Assembly: GCA_021432655.1 (NCBI GenBank)
Contig: MU271584.1
Location: forward strand, 1-41,790
DNA from: Atractiella rhizophila
Taxonomy: Eukaryota
DNA length: 41,790 nucleotides
Reading direction: 5' to 3'
A program made the position numbers and the translations under genes. This document shows positions 5,959 through 35,974 of this stretch, piece by piece. The notes beneath the pieces were generated by a model, which did no database searches, was not told the origin of the DNA, and saw only the letters and a program-made list of their open reading frames with translations. Positions within the stretch are counted from its first letter, which is position 1. Each line of letters starts with the position of its first letter.

Positions 5959-6432
5959 GTCAATATTTCCTCAAGTTGGACGGTATTTCTTCTTGAATGT
6001 TATAGCTTTGCTGATTGCAGTGTTGCTGCGAGTGAATGTCACTTCGAGTGATGATAGAGAGCGTAGGCTGTCAAAGCAAAGAGCGAAAGGTGCTGGACCT
6101 GAATGCAAGTAATGGCAGGTGCTAGCCTGAGTGCCAACTAGTTGACAAGCGAGAACTGACGAAGGAGAGAATGAAGAAACAAAGGAGCGCAGTATTTTTG
6201 CATTTCTTATCAAGTTATCTTATATAGCCTGTAAGAAGTCAAGAAGGAGGCTGTGCACGTTTCAAGAGCATGCGAGCATGCGACCAGGAGAGAAACATGG
6301 TTGTGCAAGTGCATTCTTGTTTAGTTCGTTCAGAGCTGCCCGGGTTGTATTTCTCTAGTAGAGTTATCATATTGCCATTCTCTTCCTCTCAATCCGCATA
6401 TTCACATGAACAGCCCTCCAGCGAAAGCACAT

Positions 6433-9079: not shown

Positions 9080-10430
9080 GGCTACTCTTGACCTCCTGCC
9101 GTTGACACCGTCAAAGCTACCTCCACACACATTCAATTTCACAGAAACTCGAGGATTTACACACATCCCGTCGACGGAAATCCAAGAAGCTTATGAAAAA
9201 GCACTGAGGGTCGAATCCGAAGTCAAAGGCGAGGCAAGCGGCCTCATCTGTGTCCGAATGGTTGGATTCTTCATTCTCCACTTCGCCCTCCCTCCCGCTC
9301 TTGCTGAATTTGGCTCCATGGCTCCATCTTAGTGATGCAGCTTGCGCGAGACGTCAATTTGGATAAGAATGACAAGTTGATGCCATTGAAACAGAAAGAC
9401 GTTCACTTGGGCCAATTCTATCGAAATTGTTTCCTTCTAGCTTGTTCGTCTCATTATAATTTCTATTACCTTACTTTGATAAGTGGTGCAAGTCAGAGCA
9501 ACAACCAGAACTCTTATTCCTTCAGAGCATTCTTCGCGACCGTCTTTCGATGAGGATGTTAGGGGGTTAGAATCGTTAATCAAGGAGTCTCCAAAGACTA
9601 CCAAACGGCAAAGAAGTATGTGCGTCACCAATCTCCCTCAGGCATGCTGTATTCACGCGCGGTTACAGGCTCTATTGTGAGATGGCTTCTGCTGCATGGT
9701 CAGCGGGTGCATAGACTCTAGTAAATATCGGCGCCTTTCAGCGGAGGACAAAAAGAAGAATACTGAAAAGGTGGCGCACTGAGTGTTGTCATATCTTGGC
9801 GGACTTCGTTACTCAGGGATTGCAGGACCCCAAGAAGGTCATCATAGATTGTTCCTCCTTATTGTTGCTGAGTGTGACGTAGCACGGAAATGCCGCCAAC
9901 CTGACAACATTTCTCACCTCCTTCGCCTTGGACGAGACGGTCGAGAGACTACTTGAAGGATCACATCACTTGTCCAACATTCTCACTCTGTCAACTTCCC
10001 TACACGATGCATGCGGGAAATTTGACTTTTGGTTCGAGGCTGTTGAAGGAAGACAAGTTTGTTCACCTGCCTCATTTCAATGTTCCTCGTTTGATAGTAC
10101 TTTCTAGAACACCTACAAAATCATTGTGCCAGACCCCGAACTCTTGGGGCCGCAACCTTCTCACTTCAAATGGGGAGGTCACGCTCACACACAGCGAGTG
10201 CGTCCAGACCAATGCAGCCAACTTTCCTCCCCAAATTGCTTGCCCTGCACGCTGCAGCCGCTCGTATCGCTCACGCATCTCCTGCTGCTGAACAGTTGGA
10301 TAGGTGGGAGAGTGACTGGGAGGAGACAAAGACTTTAGCACAGGACGGGTCTAGTCTTGAAGTTATCGATATGATTGCTGCACGACTAAGATCACTTGCA
10401 GCAGTTGCGCGACGGCATGGTCAACTGTGC
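9080..10430 (+). pseudogene. Disrupted fungal HNH-endonuclease-domain (HNH_2-like) gene
   Basis: Fragments match the basidiomycete HNH family: TLIPSEHSSRPSF; ALL*DGFCCMVSG (typical ALxRDGxRCxxTG, with TGA at 9678-9680 in place of Arg); C-terminal LLALHAAAARIAHASPAAE..TLAQDGSS. A further stop or frameshift lies near 9330 and others in 9750-10240. Confidence 0.7.
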
Positions 10431-15729: not shown

Positions 15730-16356
15730 TGTAGATGCCTTGATAATACTAGTAATCGTTAGCTACTGGCCATGTAAGAACAGAGGGACTCACTGTTACG
15801 ATGTCGATATGCCTGCTTTTGTGTGTTTCAAGTTGAGCCCCGTGGTTTATGACGTCGGTGATCAGGCAAGCGGGAATACCGGTTAACTTGTCTGTTGTCT
15901 CATCCACATCACAAAGTGAGCAATGAACAAAGTAATTATTATCAAGTGTAACACGACAATGAATCTATTACTGTATAATTTCAAAGGGCAAGGATCAATG
16001 TCACACCAGAAAGCGAAATAATCTACACCGTAACAACAGCCAAAGGTCTCAACCTCGCAGAGACAATATCCAAACCAGCGGAAAAAGATCCTCCACAAAC
16101 CCTCCCGCAACTGGCGCCATCTTTCTGGCGTGCAGAAAACTTCGTTGAAGGTCCAATAAATCTCGCTGGACGCGACCCGCTTCCCTAGGGGACCACGTAC
16201 AACATCCTTCGTTTGTCTTTGTTGTTCACAGTCGCAGCTTTCCATAACCATGATACTCCAATCGTTGCTTGAGATTTGGTTACGGAAGATCCGTCGCATG
16301 CTGGTGGTGACTTCCTACACTTTGGTCCGCCCCTTGCTCCCTCGAGGGCGCAGCTG

Positions 16357-17288
16357 ATGGAGAGTCAGGCACCAAAACGCAAGTCAAGGATAACAGGATA
16401 TGTTGAGCCACCATATCAAGGCTTTGTCGCCCGCTGCTGGGGCGTCTTACACAGACAGCTTTACTCTCTGTCTTTATGGTACTGCAGGCGTTACGGAATT
16501 CGTTCAGTGGAGGCCCTTGGCTTCGCTGATTGGGGACCTCTGCCGCTTGGGCTCTTTCTTAAGGTCAGCAGTCGACCATTGGACGTCGACTGTGCTGCTA
16601 CGAAATTTGCTCGATCTCTTGGGGTTCCAACACCTAGGATTCTCAGCTACGGATTCTTTTACACCGACGACGGATACCCACACTATACTTTGCTAATGAC
16701 GCGCCTGCCAGGCGTCAAGCTCTCTGAGATTTGGGAAGACTTATCTGAAGAGAAACAGGATAGATTGAAGGAAGAATTGCGAGTATATCTCAAACGCATG
16801 CGAGCGGCAGAAAACCCCTATGGCCGTCAAATCTGCTCTGTTCTCGGCGGCGCACTGTGGAGCCCTCGATTGCCCTGGGGTAAAGTAGGGCCCTGCGACG
16901 CGAGCGCCTTGAGAAGAGAGCTCATCCAAGACGCTCCTGAATCCTCTTTCGCTCAGTTGGAGTCTATGGAGCTTTCCTCTCGCACGCCACGTATAGTCTT
17001 CACCCACGGTGACCTCTTTCCCTGGAATATCATGGTCCACAACGACCGGATATCTGGCATTTTTGACTGGGAGACGGCGGGTACGGATTTTTCAAAGCCA
17101 CTCAAGGGAAGCTGACGTGTAGAGCAGGATGGCTCCCTGACTATTGGGAAGTGACGACGACGCAGCGAATGTCTCAATTCTACTGGGGTGATGTAGTCCG
17201 TCAACTGGTTGATGAAGACTACACCGAGGAGCTTAGAGCTGAAAGGCTCATCTGGAAATGTACCAGCGATTTGTTTCCTTTCATGTGA
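16357..17288 (+). CDS. APH/choline-kinase-like phosphotransferase (2 exons)
   Basis: LGVPTPRILSYG, LLMTRLPG, Brenner motif FTHGDLFPWNIMV and SGIFDWETA|GWLPDYWE; stop TGA at 17286-17288. Confidence 0.9.
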
Positions 17289-17605
17289 AATTGGTGTTGG
17301 AAGTGTTGGGATGTGGAGGTCGCGAAGGAACCAAGCACACCAGTCTACATCTGCGTTAAGCATCTGACTGAGGATCACTGCATTGCTGTCATCAGTCATC
17401 AAATGAAGGATTGTTATGCTTCGGAACCTGTCTGGCTCGCTCATGCATGTCCCCATATTGTTGCGTTCGTTTCTATCCAAGATCCCGACCCAAGAACCCA
17501 AAAGGCATCAAACCACTCGTATCCCACTTCCCCATTTAAGCCAGACTTCAAGTTATTACAGTGAGTTTGTTGGCTGTTGCTTCTCCCTGGAAGCGAAATC
17601 CGCTT

Positions 17606-17667
17606 TTGATGAGCGCTTTCGAGGCTTGGACCAGATCAGAAGGAGTGGGTGGACTGGGAAATTCTGA
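17606..17667 (+). ncRNA. Candidate intronic box C/D snoRNA (orphan)
   Basis: TTGATGA (17606-12) ... CTGA (17664-67) closed by a CGCTT/AGGCG stem, inside a GTGAGT(17561)..CTGAC..CAG(17713) intron. No canonical rRNA guide identified. Confidence 0.45.
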
Positions 17668-17904
17668 TAGGCGAAATTTAGAGAGTTGCATTTCTGACTT
17701 TCAATCATACCAGCAACTGCAGCGTCAGCACAAGCGAAATGACTTGAACCCTGTGCCTGGACCGTGATCAGACCGTGACCACAGCCAAACAAAAAAAACA
17801 ACCACCTCCCCCAAACACAACAACTAACTTGTCTGACCTTCTCTGATTTGAGCTCTTCGGCTTGAACTGTGCGTGTTTTCTCTTATATCCCTTAATAATT
17901 CAAG

Positions 17905-18008
17905 AGGATGAAAAACCGATTCATGCATGGCTTTCCTACTCCCCCTTCCAAGCGAAGAATGGGATGTGAGGACACACAATCAATGCTCGCCTAGACAGCG
18001 AGTTCTGA
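17905..18008 (+). ncRNA. Intronic box C/D snoRNA, predicted guide for 18S rRNA C49 (yeast numbering)
   Basis: C box AGGATGA 17905-11. The 12-nt element CATGCATGGCTT (17922-33) is complementary to conserved 18S AAGCCAUGCAUG. D' CCTA 17935-38; C' GTGAGGA 17966-72; D CTGA 18005-08. Lies within intron GTGCGT(17869)..CCAG(18052). Confidence 0.7.
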
Positions 18009-18147
18009 CGTTTCCACTCCGAAAGCATTTTTACGGACTCCTCTGATTCCAGACTCGTTAGTAGCACCTTTCGTCGCGTCGGAAAATTTTGTTTGGTGAG
18101 CTTTTCGACTTTTTTTCATCGGATGGAAGCAGAGAGGGAGGACAAAA

Positions 18148-18231
18148 GTGATGAGCTCTTAAACCGCATGTTAGACTGCCTACTCCTTAAGACAGAGGAT
18201 GAGGAACGAAAGAATTTTCACGTCAGACTGA
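18148..18231 (+). ncRNA. snR58: Intronic box C/D snoRNA, snR58/SNORD104-like (25S Cm663 guide, yeast numbering)
   Basis: C box GTGATGA 18148-54. Guide GCATGTTAGACT (18166-77) is complementary to LSU AGUCUAACAUG. D' CCTA 18179-82 places the +5 rule on the C of GAGUCUAAC; C' ATGAGGA 18199-205; D CTGA 18228-31. Long external stem gatgga..gcagagagg / cctttctgc..tccatc. Lies within intron GTGAGC(18096)..CACAG(18318). Confidence 0.8.
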
Positions 18232-18332
18232 TTTCTCCTGCCTTTCTGCAACTCCATCACTGCATCACTTTCTGAACAACTCAAAAAGTAGTGAAGCTGA
18301 TTGTGTGATCTGGCACAGGTGAACACTCCATC

Positions 18333-20418
18333 ATGTCAACTTTGCAGAAAAAGACAATCCAAACCTTCCTCCCCGACCTCCCACCTTCGACACTGCACCG
18401 CATCTACGCCTTGCCCTCAAATGTGTTGGCCGTCTTCCGCCTCCTCCCTCCTTTAGCTCGGCAGGTCGTTATGAATCTGCTCTGGTTACCAGTCAGTGCC
18501 GACCGTAAGGGGAAGGGGAAGGCGAAAGACGGTGGTGTTGGAGTCGGTGGGGTGGAGAAGGGGGAGATGGAGATGTGGATGAAGAAGGGAGAACAGGGGA
18601 AGAGGTGCGTTGCTCTCTTATGGCTCTTCGTTTGGATAAGGAGAGGAATAAACATATCTGCATGCAATACAATTTTCGTCTATCCCGTGCTCTTGCTTCA
18701 CTTCTTCAGATTGAGAAAGTGAGAAAGAATCTGATTTGAGCCTTCAGCTTGTTAAATGCCGCACTTGAGGTCCTACAGCGTCTATCCATCCTCTCCCTCT
18801 CTCCTTCAACCCAATCATACACCCTCAACTCGTCCTTCTCCACATCCTTACGTCTCGCAATCCTCGGCGGGTCCGTCAATCCTTCCTTTTCCTCCCCTGC
18901 GAGATTGATGTGCGAGTAGAGGAAACCATCAATCCTTCGGTGTCATCTCCCCATCCTCCACACGAGATAACGAAAAGTCCCTCACGTTTCTGGATCGACA
19001 CGCAAAAGAGAAATGGGAGACCATACTTCACTTCCTCGTCTCTCCGTCCACTCAGGTTGCTCCGACGAGACAAGTGCTAGGGCTGTTAGAACGAGGGGGA
19101 TTCATGAATCGCATGTCGGTTTTCCTTCCCGCACCTTGATAATAAAGAGCTGCAATGCTGACATTTGGGTGACGGTAGAGGAAGGAATCTCGATATCACG
19201 AGTCGCGGGTTTGGCTTTCTGCTTGAGGAGATGAATGCGCAGATATGGGAGATCCTCCTCGTCTATTTAGAGGGATGTTCGGTACGCTTCCCGGGGCGGT
19301 ACTCGGAATGCGCTCACGAAAGAGAAACAGGACAGGGATATGGACCTCGTCGAGGTATTGAGCTGCATATTTATGCTGGGATCTCTAGAACTCGGTAAAG
19401 TATGCCTTCCCATCTATATCCTTCTTTGTCTCCTAGATCATTTCGGTTGGCTCGGGAAAGGCATACAAAACGTCTCCACTGTCGCCCACGGTGTTGTCCA
19501 TGTTACAAGATCTACGCGATTACGGATTGGTATACATCGACCCGAAACAGCCGGATCGCTTTTTCCCTACTCGCCTCGCTACCACTCTCACCTCTTCCTC
19601 AATTGTGCTGCCTAATAGCGAGGCGCAGATGAAGATGTCGGAGAAGCACGTAGGAGTGGGAGAGATTGAGGAGGAAGGGAAAGGGTTCATTATCGTCGAG
19701 ACAAATTACAAAGTTTATGCTTATACGAGTCTGTCTTTTCCTTCGTCAAATTCCGTGATGTTCATGTGGAGTGTCAGACAACGCGTTGCAGGTTTCGCTT
19801 CTTGGCCTCTTTGTGCATCTTAGGTCCAGATTCGCGAACTTGGTGGTAGGGATGATCACCAGAGAGAGCATCAAGGAAGCTCTGGCTAAGGGGATTACAG
19901 CGGACCAAGTGGGGTCCAACCTCTCCTTTCGAAGGCGAACTGACGATGGATTGCAGATAGTGGCGTATTTGACAGCGAATGCACATCCACAGATGCTGAA
20001 TCAAGTTCGTCGTTTGATCTAGCATAAATCCAGTCAGGGGTGACCCAATAGATATGAATTGTAGAACCCGCTCCTTCCCCCCACTGTGGTGGATCAAATA
20101 AGACTCTGGGAGCTAGAAAAGAATCGAATCCGTACCCACGAAGGTTCGTCCTTGCACTCAAGTGCTTTAATCATTTTGTATAATTGACCTGGCACTCATC
20201 AGGATTCTTGTATGATGACTTCCATACGCGGGAGGACTTTGAACTCGTCATGAAATATGCCGACGAGCTTGGAGCTTTGTTGTGGAAGAACGAGGTGAAG
20301 ATGCTCCTCTTTGTCGAGGGCAGTGGGAACGATGCTGTGAGGTCCGTCTATTTTACTTTGCATGATCTTCCGAACTGAACAATGGGCCAGGGACTATATA
20401 AGACGGCGAATGACGTGA
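18333..20418 (+). CDS. TFB2: TFIIH core subunit Tfb2 (p52/GTF2H4), multi-exon
   Basis: Motifs [106 protein letters not shown] and GFLYDDF; stop 20416-20418. Confidence 0.96.
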
Positions 20419-20490
20419 TGGGTCGACCTTTGAATGACTCTTGTACAACGACATTGTTATTTTCTTTGGTTCATTGTGGAATGTTAAACA

Positions 20491-22944
20491 TCAAATTCGA
20501 CCGATCAAAATCGCTTCGGCCCTCTCCCCCTTCTTGAGTACTGTCTTCCCTCCTCCCTCCTCCAAAGCTGGAACGGCGACCAAACCATTCGCACCAGCAA
20601 GGCTTATCATGCGCGACGACCTCTGCCCTCCGGTCGAGTCTGCGATTAGACCATCTCCATTCAATGAAGGGATGATGTGGACGCGGTGAAACTCCGGACG
20701 AGGATCGAGCTTGAAATCGGATGTTATCTGCCGCATTCGTGAATTAGGTGTAAATACATATCGTCTCCTAATGAAAGAGAGAAGGACGGACCGTGACTGG
20801 AACACGAGGCAGCTGCCATCGTTCTTGAGGGAGACCGCCCATCTTACGCAAACAGGGAAGGACGAAGACGTAGAAAGTGACAAGAGCTGAAGCTGGGTTT
20901 CCTGGAAGTGCGAAGAGGAGCGTGTCATTCGGGAGGGTCGCAAAGGTGGTCGGTTTCCTTCACAATCTGCATTCAGGTTGATTATCAGAACAAAGAAAAT
21001 AGGCAGACCCCGGCTTCATCGCAACGCGCCCAAAGTGTATCTTTCCTTCCAAATACCTCTCCACTACAGGTTTGAGCAAGTCAGCCTCTCCCATACTCGT
21101 TCCTCCAGTGGTGACTATCACGTCACATTTGTCAATTCCCTCCTTCAACACCCTGACATGGTCATCGACGGTATCTTGTGCAATCCCCAGATCCACCACT
21201 TCGAAATTGAGCGAACGGAGCGCAGAGATGAGCGATGGTCGGTTGGTGTCGTATATCTTTGAAGAAGTGGGAGCAGAGGAGGAAGAAGGGGAAAGGTCAC
21301 TGATCTCGTTCCCAGTGGAGAGGACTCCGACAACTGGACGACGGTGGACTTGCACCTGTTCACATTCCATCACCACATCATGAGTAGCTAAGGCTTAGAG
21401 AAGCGATGGATCCATTAGCACACACATCAGTTTGGCCGACAAACACGATCGATCCAATCTCGCCTCCAACCTCTGTGATTTCCGTTCCCTTCTCAAGAAC
21501 GGTATCTCCCTCTCTCACGTCACTTCCTATTCAGACCATAACCACACGCAATCATAAACGACAGTCAGCGGTGTAAATTGTTTCAGGAGATAAAATCGGA
21601 AACATGCCTATCTCACGAATCTCCCTGCTTCCTCCTCCTCCCAACACTCGGATAGTTTTCTCTTCAGCGTTCAAATCCACATCCCCCACCTCCGTATCCT
21701 CAACCATGATCACGCTCGCCGTACCATTCGGCAATCTCCCGCCTGTATTCACACGACACGCTTTCCCCGCTTCCAGCTCTTTGGAGAAATCGAACTCCTT
21801 GCTGGTCACAACTTCATACACGCTCCCAGGCACCACCGTTGCATCCTTAATTGCATATCCATCAACGTTCGTGCTTCGCCACGGAGGGATTGGAGTGGCC
21901 GCAACGACTGGGGAGGAGAGAACACTGCCTATTAAGCTAGACGGATGTGAAGAAAGGAGTGATGCGGTGGTGGGAGGAAGGTTAGGGGTGTTTTTGAATA
22001 TGAGGGAGAGTGCAGAGGAGAGGGGAATCATGGGATAAGGTGAGATGCGGTTCCGTTTGCTAGCTATCAAATTCAAAATTAGAGTTATAGGAAGCATTGA
22101 TGGGGAGAGATGGGAACCTGATTGGGTTGGATCGTGTGAGAGGTGTTGGTGCGAATGGGAATCGGTGTGATGATGGTGGTGATGTGAGTGAGCATGACGA
22201 TGGGAATGAGGTTCCTGCTGCATTTTTTCATGTACCTCTTTTCCAGATCCACCGGAAGAGAGCTCCAATGCTACTCACACATAAATTTTATCAATCGGGT
22301 GTTCTTCAGGTAGGAATGGATAATGCTTACCATGAGGGAAGACCGCCATCAGCTCAGCCAATATCTCTTTCACAGCCTTCGCGCTCCCCGGAAGAGTGAC
22401 GATCAAACAATTCTCTTTGGTCAATCCAGCAATTGGGCGAGAGAGAGCAGCCATTGGTGTCTTTTTTAACGAAGAAGCAATTATGAGATGAACAATTCCT
22501 GGCGTTTCTTTGACGATGAACGGCTTGACCGACTGCTCATACACCAGTCCTTCTTCTGATCTCTAAATGAAAGACAAATGAGGAACTGACCTCTGGCGTA
22601 ACATCTACACTCCACAGGGCTGTGAACAAAAACTCAAGGAGAATAAATAATGAAAAACAAACCTCGAATGCCAAATCCAGTGCCTCCCGTCGTCAAAATC
22701 ATCCTCACCCCGTTACCAATCGCGGCCGCCACAGCTTGCACGATTTGAGTTCCTTCATCCTTGACGATCTCAAGAGAATCGATGATGTAGGTACTCCCTG
22801 AGTTGGCGCTAGAAAGAAAGGATCGGATCTCCTTCCCTGCAGAATCGGTGGAGGAGGTTCGAGTGTCGCTTACTGCTCTACTTATTCAGAGATGGCTTGG
22901 AATGAGGACAGGCACAGACCTACGATGATCGATACTTTGTACAT
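20491..22944 (-). CDS. cnxE: Gephyrin-like molybdenum cofactor biosynthesis protein (MogA G-domain + MoeA E-domain fusion)
   Basis: G-domain: [49 protein letters not shown]. His-rich linker. E-domain: [72 protein letters not shown]. Confidence 0.95.
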
Positions 22945-33553: not shown

Positions 33554-35974
33554 TCAATCGTGTTTGAGGATTATTGCCTTCACCTTTTTATCGAGTAAGT
33601 CTTGTGGAAAATTACCAACAGCGCAGAGACAAACCTCAGTCCAAACTTCCAAAGCTAAACAATTATCAGACGAATAATCAATAAATAAAGAAGATGTGAA
33701 ACGCACCTTGTGCACTCTTCTCCCTCCCAACGCCGCTTGACTTCCAGCCTCCGAACGGCATATCCTGTGCACTAAACACAAACAATACGTGAAAATGAAA
33801 TCTGAACGAAGCAGGGAAAGGCGAACTGCATCGGGGAATTCGTATTGATGGCTACAGACCCAGCTTCCAAAGCTTTCGCAACCCGCATGGCCCGGTCGAT
33901 CTATTTTTCCTTCACTTTAACGACCGCTCCTTACAACATGGTCCACCTACGTCTTTTGTGAATACGGCTGCATAGAGACCGTCTAGTAAAGTTGTGAGCG
34001 AGGTGGGAGAAAATTCTGGTGTGGTTTACATTCAGTATCATTTGCACGTTCGATGGCCTCCTCTTCCGTTTTACTGCATTTGCTTCAGCATGTGAACCTT
34101 CAACGAGGCAGCGGAGGACAAACAAGGTATGGAAAACCAGCACCGGTCCGAATATCTGTTTGTTGTTGTTAGTTTCGCCGCTCAATCCAAAGTGAATTCA
34201 CTTACTTCCTCTATCGGTGATGTGAGTACATTGAGTTCCAGCTCTTTGGCACTTTAAACCACTTACCTTTATTGATTCTAGAAGTTTCCGCAGCCTCAGT
34301 GAAGATTGTAGGCTGGAAGAAGTGCCCTTTCAGTCCTTCGACACGCTCGCCTCCCAAAACAACTTTTGCTTCTTTCTTCCTGTTCACATAGTCAGTGCAT
34401 ACAAAGAAGAGAGCTTCCTCTAAGCACACCCAATATCAAGATAAGATGCCACAGTGCGGCCTTGGATATCGTCTGCCATTGGTCTAGATAACTTCGAGCT
34501 CAGAACGTGACAGAGAACAAGGACAGAACAGACCCCATCGTCGTCGAGGAGTCCAAAGGGTCACCGTGCTTTACGTTAGAAAAGCTTTTCTTGTACTTCT
34601 CGAGAAACCTCTCGGCTACTGTTTCTTGAACATACAGGCGCGTCGAGGCCATACAAATCTGTCCGCTATTACGACACAGACGCCATCAACTATGCTCAGA
34701 CAATTTCAAGAGAAGCATACGCGTTGATTTGAAGCGAGAACACGCTGGAAGCGACCGCCTTTTCCAGGTCCGCATCTTCGAAGACAATTGTAGGTGACTT
34801 CCCTCCCTATTTGTTCGGTATTTGATGATCGTCAACATACCAATCTGGGCAAGAAGAGTAAACACGCACAAGTTCCAGGGTAACATTCTTCAAGTTCGAA
34901 TCAGCAGCCGCTTTCTGTATCAGCCTCCCCGTCCTCGTGCTATAGTACCATCAAATGATTATTCAACTTGGAGTGTTCGTGAAGCGAATGGAAGTTTAGA
35001 CCTTCCAGTGAACGCAATTTTGCGAATCTCCATATGCTCTGCAAGGATTTTGCCAGTGTCACCTGTACGACCCATGTTACCATCTCACTTTATTGGAACC
35101 AGCATAGTACAAAAGCGAACCTGCTCCTGAAACGACATTGATCAACCCATCAGGGAATCCAGCTTCTTTCGTGAGGGAAGCCAAGTGGATCGACGTGAGA
35201 GGTGCCTAGCCAGGCACGAACGGCATGAGTATCATCCCAATGAGACCGGAGGATCCATACCTTCTCACTGCTCTTGAGAATGATGGCATTGCCAGCGGCG
35301 ACAGCTGGCGCGATCTTGAGACAAGCCATAATGATGGGTACATTCCAAGGGATGATTCCAGCAACCACTCCAAAAGGCTGACGGATGCTGAAGTTCAGGT
35401 GTCCTGGGGTATTGAGGGATGTTGTTCCTCCGAGTGATTCTCCCAGACCCTTCACTTCATGAGTAGGTAGAAGAGTTGAGGAAGGAGGCCGTACAGCAAA
35501 GTACTCGAAGTGCCTTGCACCAGACTGTACATCATTCCCGTATCCAGAAATTGGGCGACCCATGCTCTGAGCCTCAAGCCAGGCGAGCTTTTCACCTATC
35601 GTAGATCCAACTCAGGGCTTGCGCTCAAAGCAGAAGGAAAGGCACACCTTCCTTTCGTAGCAGATCAGCCATCTTCTTCATCACTGCAGATCTTGCTGCA
35701 GCAGATAACGCTGCCCATCCCTTCTGAGCTTTCTTTGCACACGAAACCGCGTAGTCGATGTCTTCTTGATTCGCAGACGGAAGTTTGCACACCAAGGTTT
35801 CAGTCGCTGTCACCCACCACGATTAGCCGAAGGTATGGCTTGAGGAGACAGCAGGCAAGTTTATTCAGGAGAAAGGAATAATTCACCTGGGTTGTATAGA
35901 TCAAACGTCTTTCCTCCCTTTGAATCTACAAACTGGCCGTTGATCCAAAGCCTCGTTTCAATGTTATGGCTCAT
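33554..35974 (-). CDS. NAD(P)+-dependent aldehyde dehydrogenase, many exons
   Basis: Motifs ETRLWINGQFV..FDLYNP, QPFGVVAGIIPWNVP, KIAPAVAAGNAIILKSSEK, IAFTGS, catalytic LELGGKSP and NAGQICMA, EIFGPV, and MPFGGWKSSGVGRE. Ends VKAIILKHD*. Confidence 0.95.

Follow-up and report, generated by a model that had tools for sequence, protein, structure and literature searches.

What occupies the approximately 1 kb between the upstream + strand gene and the start codon of TFB2 in Atractiella rhizophila? The window analyzed here is a whole stretch of 41,790 nucleotides (assembly GCA_021432655.1, contig MU271584.1, positions 1 to 41,790). An original prediction, made from the letters of the window, divided the segment before the TFB2 ATG into four introns and three tiny exons and placed snoRNAs in three of the introns. 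In summary, the segment is probably best explained as a spliced non-coding leader of TFB2, whose long introns would carry snoRNAs. On this reading, the snoRNA host is a protein-coding gene that bears its cargo in 5′UTR introns, and the locus is not a four-intron, three-snoRNA cluster.

The identity of the downstream gene is as predicted. Pfam Tfb2 (PF03849) matches 18333-18602 with an E value of 3e-10; Tfb2 was found in all three exons tested, and Tfb2_C in a fourth exon. For the exon structure, contigs of run X3 were read as RNA-derived because 13 of the 15 joints listed have GT..AG or CT..AC ends. Among these joints, 12 introns with GT..AG ends lie in the region 16000-21000. The leader and the first coding exon are as follows.

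17561..17713, + strand: putative leader intron 1 (GTGAGT donor, CTGAC branch site at 17695-17699, CAG acceptor)
17787..17868, + strand: leader exon 5′ of the first confirmed intron, of presumed extent (colinear for at least 20 letters; loose end at 17787)
17869..18061, + strand: leader intron 3, 193 nt (joint 17868 to 18062, GT..AG)
18062..18095, + strand: leader exon of 34 nt (joints on both sides), opening with an in-frame TAG
18096..18318, + strand: leader intron 4, host of sno4, 223 nt (joint 18095 to 18319, GT..AG)
18319..18604, + strand: exon with the TFB2 start codon (ATG at 18333; Pfam match, contigs spliced onto 18319)

All four proposed introns do start with GT and end with AG, but the full parse did not hold. 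Intron 4 lies exactly where it had been placed. Besides the X3 joint, it is supported by one 29-letter loose end, one variant joint in X3 and one contig of run X1, from a related organism. In this X1 contig, 18027-18096 is joined to 18332-18497, which reaches 166 nt into the TFB2 coding exon. For intron 3 the donor at 17869 was right, while the X3 joint puts the acceptor at 18061 instead of 18052. The short side of this joint is 20 letters, placed at 88% likeness, a weaker class of joint; a second X3 contig has 10 loose letters that equal 17859-17868. Intron 2 (17724-17852) is contradicted, since the contig with the intron 3 joint stays colinear over 20 or more letters 5′ of 17868, past the supposed acceptor at 17852/17853. 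This acceptor is GAG, which is found in 0 of the 12 confirmed introns. The loose end at 17787 and an X3 depth of 15.7 in the bin 17670-17836 suggest an exon reaching to at least about 17787. Intron 1 has no joint among the X3 joints listed. The tiny exons of 10, 16 and 43 nt do not survive either, with intron 2 lost and the joints giving 34 nt for the exon that precedes intron 4.

X1 and X3 contigs splice the exon 18062-18095 onto the TFB2 start exon. The joints and the search for an ATG bear out the view of this region as a spliced non-coding leader, and the in-frame stop is present as TAG at 18062-18064, 48 nt upstream of the ATG. As predicted, no ATG precedes 18333 in the assumed spliced leader, but an ATG at 17739 comes in if 17714-17868 is a single exon; a stop would then follow two codons later. 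The 5′ gene model of TFB2 is thus corrected to three or more non-coding exons ahead of the ATG, which protein-only annotation misses. The two confirmed leader introns (193 and 223 nt) differ from the confirmed non-leader introns, which are 44-64 nt (n = 10); intron 3 has three times the usual length of confirmed introns.

What do these long introns carry? The clearest element is in intron 4.

18138..18242 (approximately), + strand: sno4, predicted box C/D snoRNA (Rfam alignment, boxes, rRNA duplexes)
18140-18146 with 18232-18238, + strand: terminal stem, 6 of 7 positions paired in the snoZ122 alignment
18148-18154, + strand: C box GUGAUGA, perfect
18176-18188, + strand: D′ guide, flush with the D′ box
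18189-18192, + strand: D′ box AAGA
18199-18205, + strand: C′ box AUGAGGA, after a 6-nt loop from the D′ box
18214-18227, + strand: D guide, flush with box D
18228-18231, + strand: D box CUGA, 74 nt after the C box

sno4 has C and D boxes, a terminal stem and guides of at least about 10 bp that abut the boxes; in the fold, the stem has an alternative 5-bp register. Pairing with the targets was scored on the LSU of L062, which is a contaminant contig and not the rRNA of A. rhizophila itself. The D guide pairs with UCUGACGUGCAAAU (L062 LSU 861-874) at 13 of 14 positions, as nine Watson-Crick pairs, one U-C mismatch inside the duplex and four further pairs. The D′ guide makes 12 Watson-Crick pairs and one G-U with L062 LSU 1350-1362. 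An anchored run of at least nine Watson-Crick pairs to rRNA is found at 14 of the 353 CTGA sites in the 41.8-kb window, and only two of the 14, one of them 18228 of sno4, have a perfect upstream C box. Since a C/D guide RNA is expected to be less structured than its shuffles, the z-score of +1.21 for the sno4 fold is as expected. sno4 starts 42 nt past its donor and lies upstream of the CTGAY branch site. Intron 4 is therefore a convincing candidate to encode a double-guide box C/D snoRNA, judged from boxes, stem and two box-abutting guides, as had been predicted for the last intron. Its host is protein-coding; the intron 18096-18318 is removed from X3 and X1 contigs that carry the TFB2 coding exon. 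The proposed coupling to TFB2 thus stands for at least one snoRNA, through spliced contigs with the TFB2 start exon.

The leader introns have no Rfam match at the gathering score; the best sub-threshold match is snoZ122 (RF00343), in sno4 only, with 23.9 bits against a gathering score of 38 (E 1.3 in a 1.5-kb search). In the same sub-threshold search, introns 1-3 have no match. sno4 resembles the plant C/D snoRNA snoZ122 in length, in box layout and in the D-guide core CACGUCAG before CUGA. In contrast, the D′ halves are unrelated, and the sno4 guide is mismatched where the family consensus has G. The base adjoining box D is A in sno4, opposite U of fungal rRNA, and U in the snoZ122 consensus, opposite A of plant-like rRNA (contig L055). 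A scan of metagenomes for the C box, D guide and D box found one locus, in the unrelated eukaryotic contig L081. The L081 snoRNA has the same guide as sno4, and its best Rfam match is also snoZ122 (20.5 bits). The sequence there is AT-rich and seemingly non-fungal, and TFB2 is absent from its surroundings. A literature search on Z122 with snoRNA found no report.

How would sno4 be produced, and what would it do? Trimming of the lariat to ends protected by core proteins is established knowledge for intron-encoded snoRNAs. Here, the contigs show the removal of introns 17869-18061 and 18096-18318 and connect the intervening 34-nt exon with the ATG exon. After splicing and debranching, exonucleases would trim the lariat to the ends protected at the C/D kink-turn by the core C/D proteins; a stable box C/D snoRNA is bound by fibrillarin/Nop1, Nop56, Nop58 and Snu13. 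The sno4 snoRNP would then direct 2′-O-methylation of two 25S rRNA adenosines, predicted to be A865 of the L062 LSU for the D guide, by the fifth-nucleotide rule, and A1354 for the D′ guide.

Is sno4 alone? A second unit lies in putative intron 1.

17601..17673, + strand: sno1, C/D-like RNA (motif scan, 5-bp stem)
17601-17605 with 17669-17673, + strand: terminal stem
17606-17612, + strand: C box UUGAUGA, one mismatch
17664-17667, + strand: D box CUGA

A 32-nt core of sno1 (17617-17648) is matched in RNA contigs of two related organisms (X1 and X2), and the surrounding leader is unmatched. By eye, in loose ends, the relative has GUGACGA and UCGA as boxes, keeping the GA of both. Its stem has two double changes, U-A to C-G and C-G to U-A, also by eye. 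The fold is less stable than its shuffles (z +1.15). sno1 starts 40 nt past its donor and upstream of the CTGAY branch site. It has no Watson-Crick run of at least 10 nt to the SSU, 5.8S and partial LSU references searched. A 9-nt match of its D′ guide to LSU 120-128, on the margin of the variable D1 hairpin, was rejected, the match being extended in 0 of 35 distinct rDNA contigs. sno1 is plausible as a snoRNA and is probably a second C/D-like RNA in an intron of its own. The locus would add at least one unannotated snoRNA gene, perhaps two.

Intron 3 has a candidate as well.

17905..18008, + strand: sno3, candidate (AGGAUGA 17905-17911, GUGAGGA 17966-17972, CUGA 18005-18008)

The candidate lacks a good terminal stem, has no D′ box adjoining its 18S match at 17922-17933, and has a hairpin (17985-18003) on the would-be D guide. 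Within the intron, the X3 depth reaches 48 at 17895. An alternative candidate from GUGAGGA at 17966 to CUGA at 18043 forms a neat stem of 5 bp; the branch site would serve as its D box, and with rRNA it pairs at best over six Watson-Crick pairs, a mismatch and five more pairs, one of them G-U. By eye, intron 3 does not fit an H/ACA RNA, as its 3′ hairpin spans just some 29 nt and lacks an ACA behind it. Thus, of the three snoRNAs predicted, one is convincing (sno4), one is plausible (sno1), and the third is a candidate only. Of the C-box..CTGA units, only that of intron 4 has a perfect C box; those of introns 1 and 3 each deviate at one position, and the GTGATCA of the intron 2 unit lacks the G needed for pairing with box D.

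Both of the predicted 12-nt rRNA complementarities exist (17922-17933 with 18S 46-57, and 18176-18187 with L062 LSU 1351-1362), but length alone is not significant, because the + strand of the 41.8-kb window has 27 such matches of at least 12 nt, counted as rows over eight partly redundant references. The rRNA references are contaminant contigs, ascomycete-like and plant-like; the fungal LSU extends to about 1916 and the plant LSU lacks about 2272-2340. Further LSU sequence from a DNA query was discarded as partly bacterial, from a chimeric contig. A 16-nt rRNA motif in viral contigs, at 18 loci, was taken as chance matches because Rfam rRNA was found in 0 of 10 scanned. Against the + strand of the window itself, guide-like complementarity did not exceed 11 nt.

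Does the whole array belong to TFB2? The prediction that the entire cluster is the TFB2 5′UTR is not borne out as a whole; the X1 contig begins at 18027. There could instead be two overlapping units. An upstream non-coding host would carry sno1 and the intron 3 cargo, and TFB2 would start mostly near 18027-18062, with intron 4 as its only true 5′UTR intron; the upstream splice into 18062 would then be read-through or a minor isoform. The X1 contig is colinear and unspliced from 18027 through 18061 and splices only intron 4; thus, some TFB2 transcripts may start downstream of sno1 and intron 3. In X1, the block 18027-18096 has three differences in 70 letters (67 of 70 kept) and a different sequence stands in the 13 nt ahead of the ATG, as might be the case for a core promoter or start region. 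The X3 depth is low (1.29) over 17503-17669, a measure that cannot rank parts of a gene when it comes from contigs. Spliced non-coding snoRNA hosts are described in Basidiomycota (PMC3596301; bioRxiv 10.1101/2024.10.08.617225). However, upstream transcripts do share the downstream exon, as the joint from 17868 to 18062 in two X3 contigs shows; the end of a contig need not mark a start of transcription, and no terminator or poly(A) evidence divides the two units. I regard this arrangement as possible but rather unlikely. A separate, improbable reading is a hybrid unit, an upstream snoRNA host fused to the TFIIH gene, in which sno1 would be an orphan C/D RNA with a non-rRNA target or the host pre-mRNA as its target, and many transcripts would be mainly snoRNA precursors. 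It builds on the nearly invariant sno1 core, whose boxes changed together (UUGAUGA/CUGA here, GUGACGA/UCGA there) without an rRNA target among the references. The main X3 contig over TFB2 exon 1 continues past the donor of the first coding intron (143 nt), a hint that many transcripts never become TFB2 mRNA.

It is equally doubtful, though conceivable, that only sno4 is real. The C-box..CTGA pairs of introns 1-3 would then have arisen by chance, and intron 3 would be long for regulation or for an alternative donor, GTGAGG at 17966. Chance pairs are expected in part because CTGAY is the branch-site motif of A. rhizophila, and the CTGA at 17696, 17843, 18043 and 18297 are in expected branch-site positions. 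With one C-box mismatch allowed, the window has 113 C/D-like pairs on the + strand and 63 on the - strand. The commonness of 12-nt rRNA matches, the shortfalls of sno3 in stem, D′ box and D guide, and the absence of Rfam matches in introns 1-3 fit as well. What argues for more than sno4 is the selective conservation of the sno1 core in RNA contigs of two relatives, with the double stem changes, together with the length of intron 3 and its depth. That the locus has no snoRNA at all, being an ordinary 5′UTR with long introns, is very improbable. Such an artefact would agree with the lack of a match at the Rfam gathering score, and the sno4 RNA is a prediction; yet sno4 joins a perfect C box, D box, C′/D′ boxes, terminal stem and two box-abutting duplexes with a guide common to plants and L081.

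The predicted D target of sno4 is an A that probably adjoins yeast G867. By this numbering, the fifth-nucleotide target is the neighboring A, in contrast to G867 and A876 of snR50 and snR72. Yeast snR50 and snR72 are not known to be intronic. Yeast 25S rRNA is methylated at Gm867 and Am876 within the D-target stretch, and their guides snR50 and snR72 act on the same stretch that the sno4 D guide pairs with, while neither predicted sno4 target is among the methylation sites listed in the table of that source (PMC5699541).

The non-coding hosts of fungal polycistronic clusters I-III also keep snoRNAs in introns between small exons (PMC3596301). The TFB2 locus resembles them in its several short non-coding exons between long introns with C/D-type elements. 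In contrast to them, the array here ends with the exon in which an essential protein starts, the host is coding, and only one snoRNA is secure. Splicing onto the TFB2 start exon sets the locus apart from a non-coding (UHG-like) host. None of the leader snoRNAs matched the snR72-78, snR57-55-61 or snR41-70-51 sets.

Is a fungal TFIIH gene known as a snoRNA host? A search for TFB2 with snoRNA and intron gave no report on such a host, judged by title or abstract. The searchable text of the Cryptococcus and Tremellomycetes work does not mention TFB2 among the hosts; its supplementary tables may list it. The layout is less novel than the prediction of a hidden cluster supposed, because intronic snoRNAs of coding genes, including 5′UTR introns, were already described for Cryptococcus. 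Of its 67 C/D snoRNAs, 83.6% are intronic; the introns that house most of them belong to coding genes or lncRNAs, and one of these introns is in a 5′UTR (bioRxiv 10.1101/2023.12.08.570810). Intronic snoRNAs in coding pre-mRNAs are likewise described for Tremellomycetes (bioRxiv 10.1101/2024.10.08.617225). Thus, current understanding is unchanged, as this layout was described for Cryptococcus and its relatives, and the TFB2 leader is a useful annotation rather than a surprise. It is an example of how snoRNA production in this fungal lineage is coupled to many kinds of host genes, including a general transcription and repair factor. The hosts of Cryptococcus and Tremellomycetes are alike in having one C/D snoRNA per long intron of a coding pre-mRNA, with a 5′UTR cargo intron (bioRxiv 10.1101/2023.12.08.570810; 10.1101/2024.10.08.617225). 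As at the TFB2 locus, their introns show poor conservation among relatives beyond the snoRNA itself.

The TFB2 gene, encoding a TFIIH subunit, has its ATG at 18333 on the + strand, about 1 kb beyond the 3′ end (17288) of the upstream + strand gene, whose predicted translation, read by eye, suggests a phosphotransferase. When three TFB2 exons were tested, each gave a match to Pfam Tfb2 (PF03849), and a fourth exon matched Tfb2_C (PF18307). The secure core of the finding is that the TFB2 leader is spliced, with a predicted double-guide box C/D snoRNA in its last intron. The original prediction of a four-intron, three-snoRNA cluster was not established beyond this core.

Splicing was assessed using contigs of three public sequencing runs (X1 to X3; X1 and X2 from related organisms) containing parts of 16000-21000. 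An RNA origin is not on record for any of them. Among the 15 X3 joints listed, the ends are GT..AG in 12 and CT..AC in one, and the joints are located where the TFB2 reading frame requires introns. Thus, X3, and likewise X1 and X2, were treated as RNA-derived. The four introns originally proposed (17561-17713, about 17724-17852, 17869-18052, and 18096-18318) all start with GT and end with AG. The fourth was recovered exactly, by one joint, a 29-letter loose end matching the upstream exon, and one variant joint. A 252-nt X1 contig joins 18027-18096 to 18332-18497, within the TFB2 coding exon. The donor of the third (17869) was right, while the X3 contigs place its acceptor at 18061 instead of 18052 (one joint with a 20-letter side; the 10 loose letters of a second contig equal 17859-17868). 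Since the next donor is at 18096, the exon ahead of intron 4 is 34 nt long (18062-18095) instead of 43 nt. The expected in-frame TAG opens this exon, 48 nt before the ATG once spliced.

Intron 2 is unsupported because the contig carrying the intron 3 joint stays colinear with the genomic sequence over at least the 20 letters ahead of 17868, crossing the proposed acceptor. That acceptor is GAG, used by none of the 12 confirmed introns. The contigs suggest that 17714-17868 is a single exon; if so, a two-codon upstream ORF (ATG ACT TGA, 17739-17747) lies in the leader. The putative intron 1 (17561-17713) has good splice signals, and no joint for it was found among the X3 joints listed. The confirmed leader introns (n = 2) are 193 and 223 nt long, in contrast to 44-64 nt for those outside the leader (n = 10), and this difference hints at cargo. 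The first coding intron of TFB2 (18605-18747) is also long, at 143 nt, where the other introns have 44-64 nt. The X3 joints listed include none that spans it, and no snoRNA boxes were seen in it. The main X3 contig on exon 1 (18360-18685) runs 81 nt past its donor and then ends, perhaps because the intron is retained or the transcript ends early.

The C/D features of the leader are as follows.

Box C/D candidates in the TFB2 leader introns
About 18138-18242, + strand: sno4, inside the intron 18096-18318
18140-18146 with 18232-18238, + strand: sno4 terminal stem, 6 of 7 positions paired
18148-18154, + strand: sno4 box C, GUGAUGA
18189-18192, + strand: sno4 box D′, AAGA, followed by a 6-nt loop
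18199-18205, + strand: sno4 box C′, AUGAGGA, after the 6-nt loop
18228-18231, + strand: sno4 box D, CUGA
17601-17673, + strand: sno1, putative, boxes UUGAUGA and CUGA, 5-bp stem CGCUU/AGGCG

On sequence grounds, the candidate sno4 is regarded as a real snoRNA gene. Its fold is less stable than its shuffles (z +1.21); C/D guide RNAs fold less stably than their shuffles. The rRNA references were contaminant rDNA contigs located by a standard primer, not the rRNA of this organism: an ascomycete-like set (SSU and LSU 1-1916, with L062 as LSU reference) and a plant-like set (SSU, LSU 1-2271, and about 2340 to the end), whose contig is partly bacterial. Many bacterial assemblies and MAGs (L019-L080, L082) have fungal-like and plant-like eukaryotic rDNA contigs, and one MAG contig (L055/L082) is chimeric, since plant-like LSU rRNA is joined to bacterial-looking sequence.

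The D guide of sno4 (18214-18227) pairs flush with box D to L062 LSU 861-874 (9 Watson-Crick pairs, a U-C mismatch, and 4 pairs), and the D′ guide (18176-18188) pairs flush with D′ to LSU 1350-1362 (12 Watson-Crick pairs and one G-U). By the fifth-nucleotide rule established for C/D guides, the predicted methylation targets are L062 A865 (D) and A1354 (D′). In yeast numbering as I count it, the D target is presumably the A adjoining G867, and the yeast sites Gm867 and Am876 presumably both lie inside the stretch paired with the D guide. These 25S sites are tabulated for snR50 and snR72, respectively, in PMC5699541, where the D′ target has no counterpart among the tabulated yeast sites. A Cryptococcus snoRNA, snR50-snR40l, is mentioned in bioRxiv 10.1101/2024.10.08.617225.

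For sno4, an Rfam search, suggested with the original prediction, returned nothing at gathering score. The C/D family that sno4 matched best when searched locally was snoZ122 (23.9 bits against a threshold of 38, E 1.3), with an alignment based on the boxes and the same D guide. The guide base adjoining box D is A in sno4, where fungal rRNA has U, and U in the plant family consensus, where plant-like rRNA has A; this is the behaviour expected of a real guide. An unrelated AT-rich eukaryotic contig (L081) has a snoRNA with the same guide, whose best match is also snoZ122 (20.5 bits). As a control, CTGA sites were screened for a run of at least 9 Watson-Crick pairs to the rRNA references starting at most 3 nt from the box. 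The window has 353 CTGA sites, and 14 of them have such a run. Only two of the 14 are also preceded, 45-160 nt upstream, by a perfect C box; one of these two is the sno4 site (18228).

The 12-nt rRNA complementarities originally noted in two introns both exist, while their length carries no significance. A search of the whole + strand gave 27 rows of at least 12 nt against 8 partly redundant references, so two such matches in about 800 nt are unremarkable. Being adjacent to a box is what counts, and only the match of sno4 is so placed. In intron 3, the match (17922-17933 to 18S 46-57) is invariant across two SSU references, and no D′-like box with GA was found after it. The AGGAUGA...CUGA pair of the candidate there (sno3) has no terminal stem, and a hairpin (17985-18003) occupies its D guide position. 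For an alternative pair, GUGAGGA at 17966 and CUGA at 18043, the stem is neat, but the D box would coincide with the branch site. A stable RNA, intron retention, or GTGAGG at 17966 as an alternative donor could account for the X3 depth of 48 at 17895.

In putative intron 1, sno1 has a C box with a single mismatch, which falls where constraint is lowest. Within the upstream leader, the sno1 core (17617-17648) alone is matched at 88% or more in contigs of both X1 and X2. In the related organism, loose ends read by eye give GUGACGA and UCGA at the boxes, with GA kept in each, and a stem with two pairs altered on both sides and one broken. sno1 starts 40 nt past the putative donor and ends 25 nt ahead of the branch-site A, a placement near that of sno4, which starts 42 nt past its donor. 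Neither guide region has a 10-nt match to the rRNA references used; a 9-nt match lies on the margin of the variable LSU hairpin D1, and in no case did the 35 distinct rDNA contigs that were inspected extend it. Putative sno1 is a plausible snoRNA, slightly more likely real than not.

Is the upstream host one transcript with TFB2? A live alternative is that TFB2 starts separately, at about 18027-18062, and that transcripts of the upstream host are spliced to the same exon. The X1 contig starts at 18027 and is colinear through 18061. It has 3 differences from the window in the 70 positions of 18027-18096, making this block no less conserved than the coding exon next to it (3/70 versus 9/166), and the 13 nt ahead of the ATG are replaced by 16 unlike letters. 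The block might belong to an RNA element or serve as a promoter or start region. In X3, depth stays low across 17503-17669 and climbs from about 17670 on, although contig depth cannot rank gene parts.

Elsewhere in the window, 6042-6165 (+) is a C/D candidate with a perfect GUGAUGA (6048), CUGA (6156-6159), and a 5-bp stem (CUUCG/CGAAG), without a match in Rfam. Soon after its box C, 6058-6069 matches plant-type SSU 780-791 over 12 nt, where the ascomycete-like reference differs. Another candidate, 9738-9845 (-), combines a perfect AUGAUGA with CUGA and, directly abutting box D, an rRNA run of 9 nt. Apart from sno4, it alone in the window passes the CTGA control, and it weakly matches Rfam sR28 (13.4 bits). 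A C/D-like GUGAUGA and CUGA pair with a 6-bp flanking stem lies at 35612-35684 (-).

TFB2 was not found as a snoRNA host in the searchable text of the literature, and supplementary tables may list it. The fungal snoRNAome paper reports several families as poorly recovered in Basidiomycota (PMC5824354). Fungi across the kingdom, Basidiomycota included, are described as having clusters of intronic snoRNAs whose hosts are spliced and non-coding (PMC3596301). A preprint with 63 C/D snoRNAs reports many from introns of coding pre-mRNAs (bioRxiv 10.1101/2024.10.08.617225). For Cryptococcus, another preprint gives 67 C/D snoRNAs and places 83.6% in introns, either of coding genes or of lncRNAs; one example lies in a 5′UTR intron of CNAG_03729 (bioRxiv 10.1101/2023.12.08.570810).
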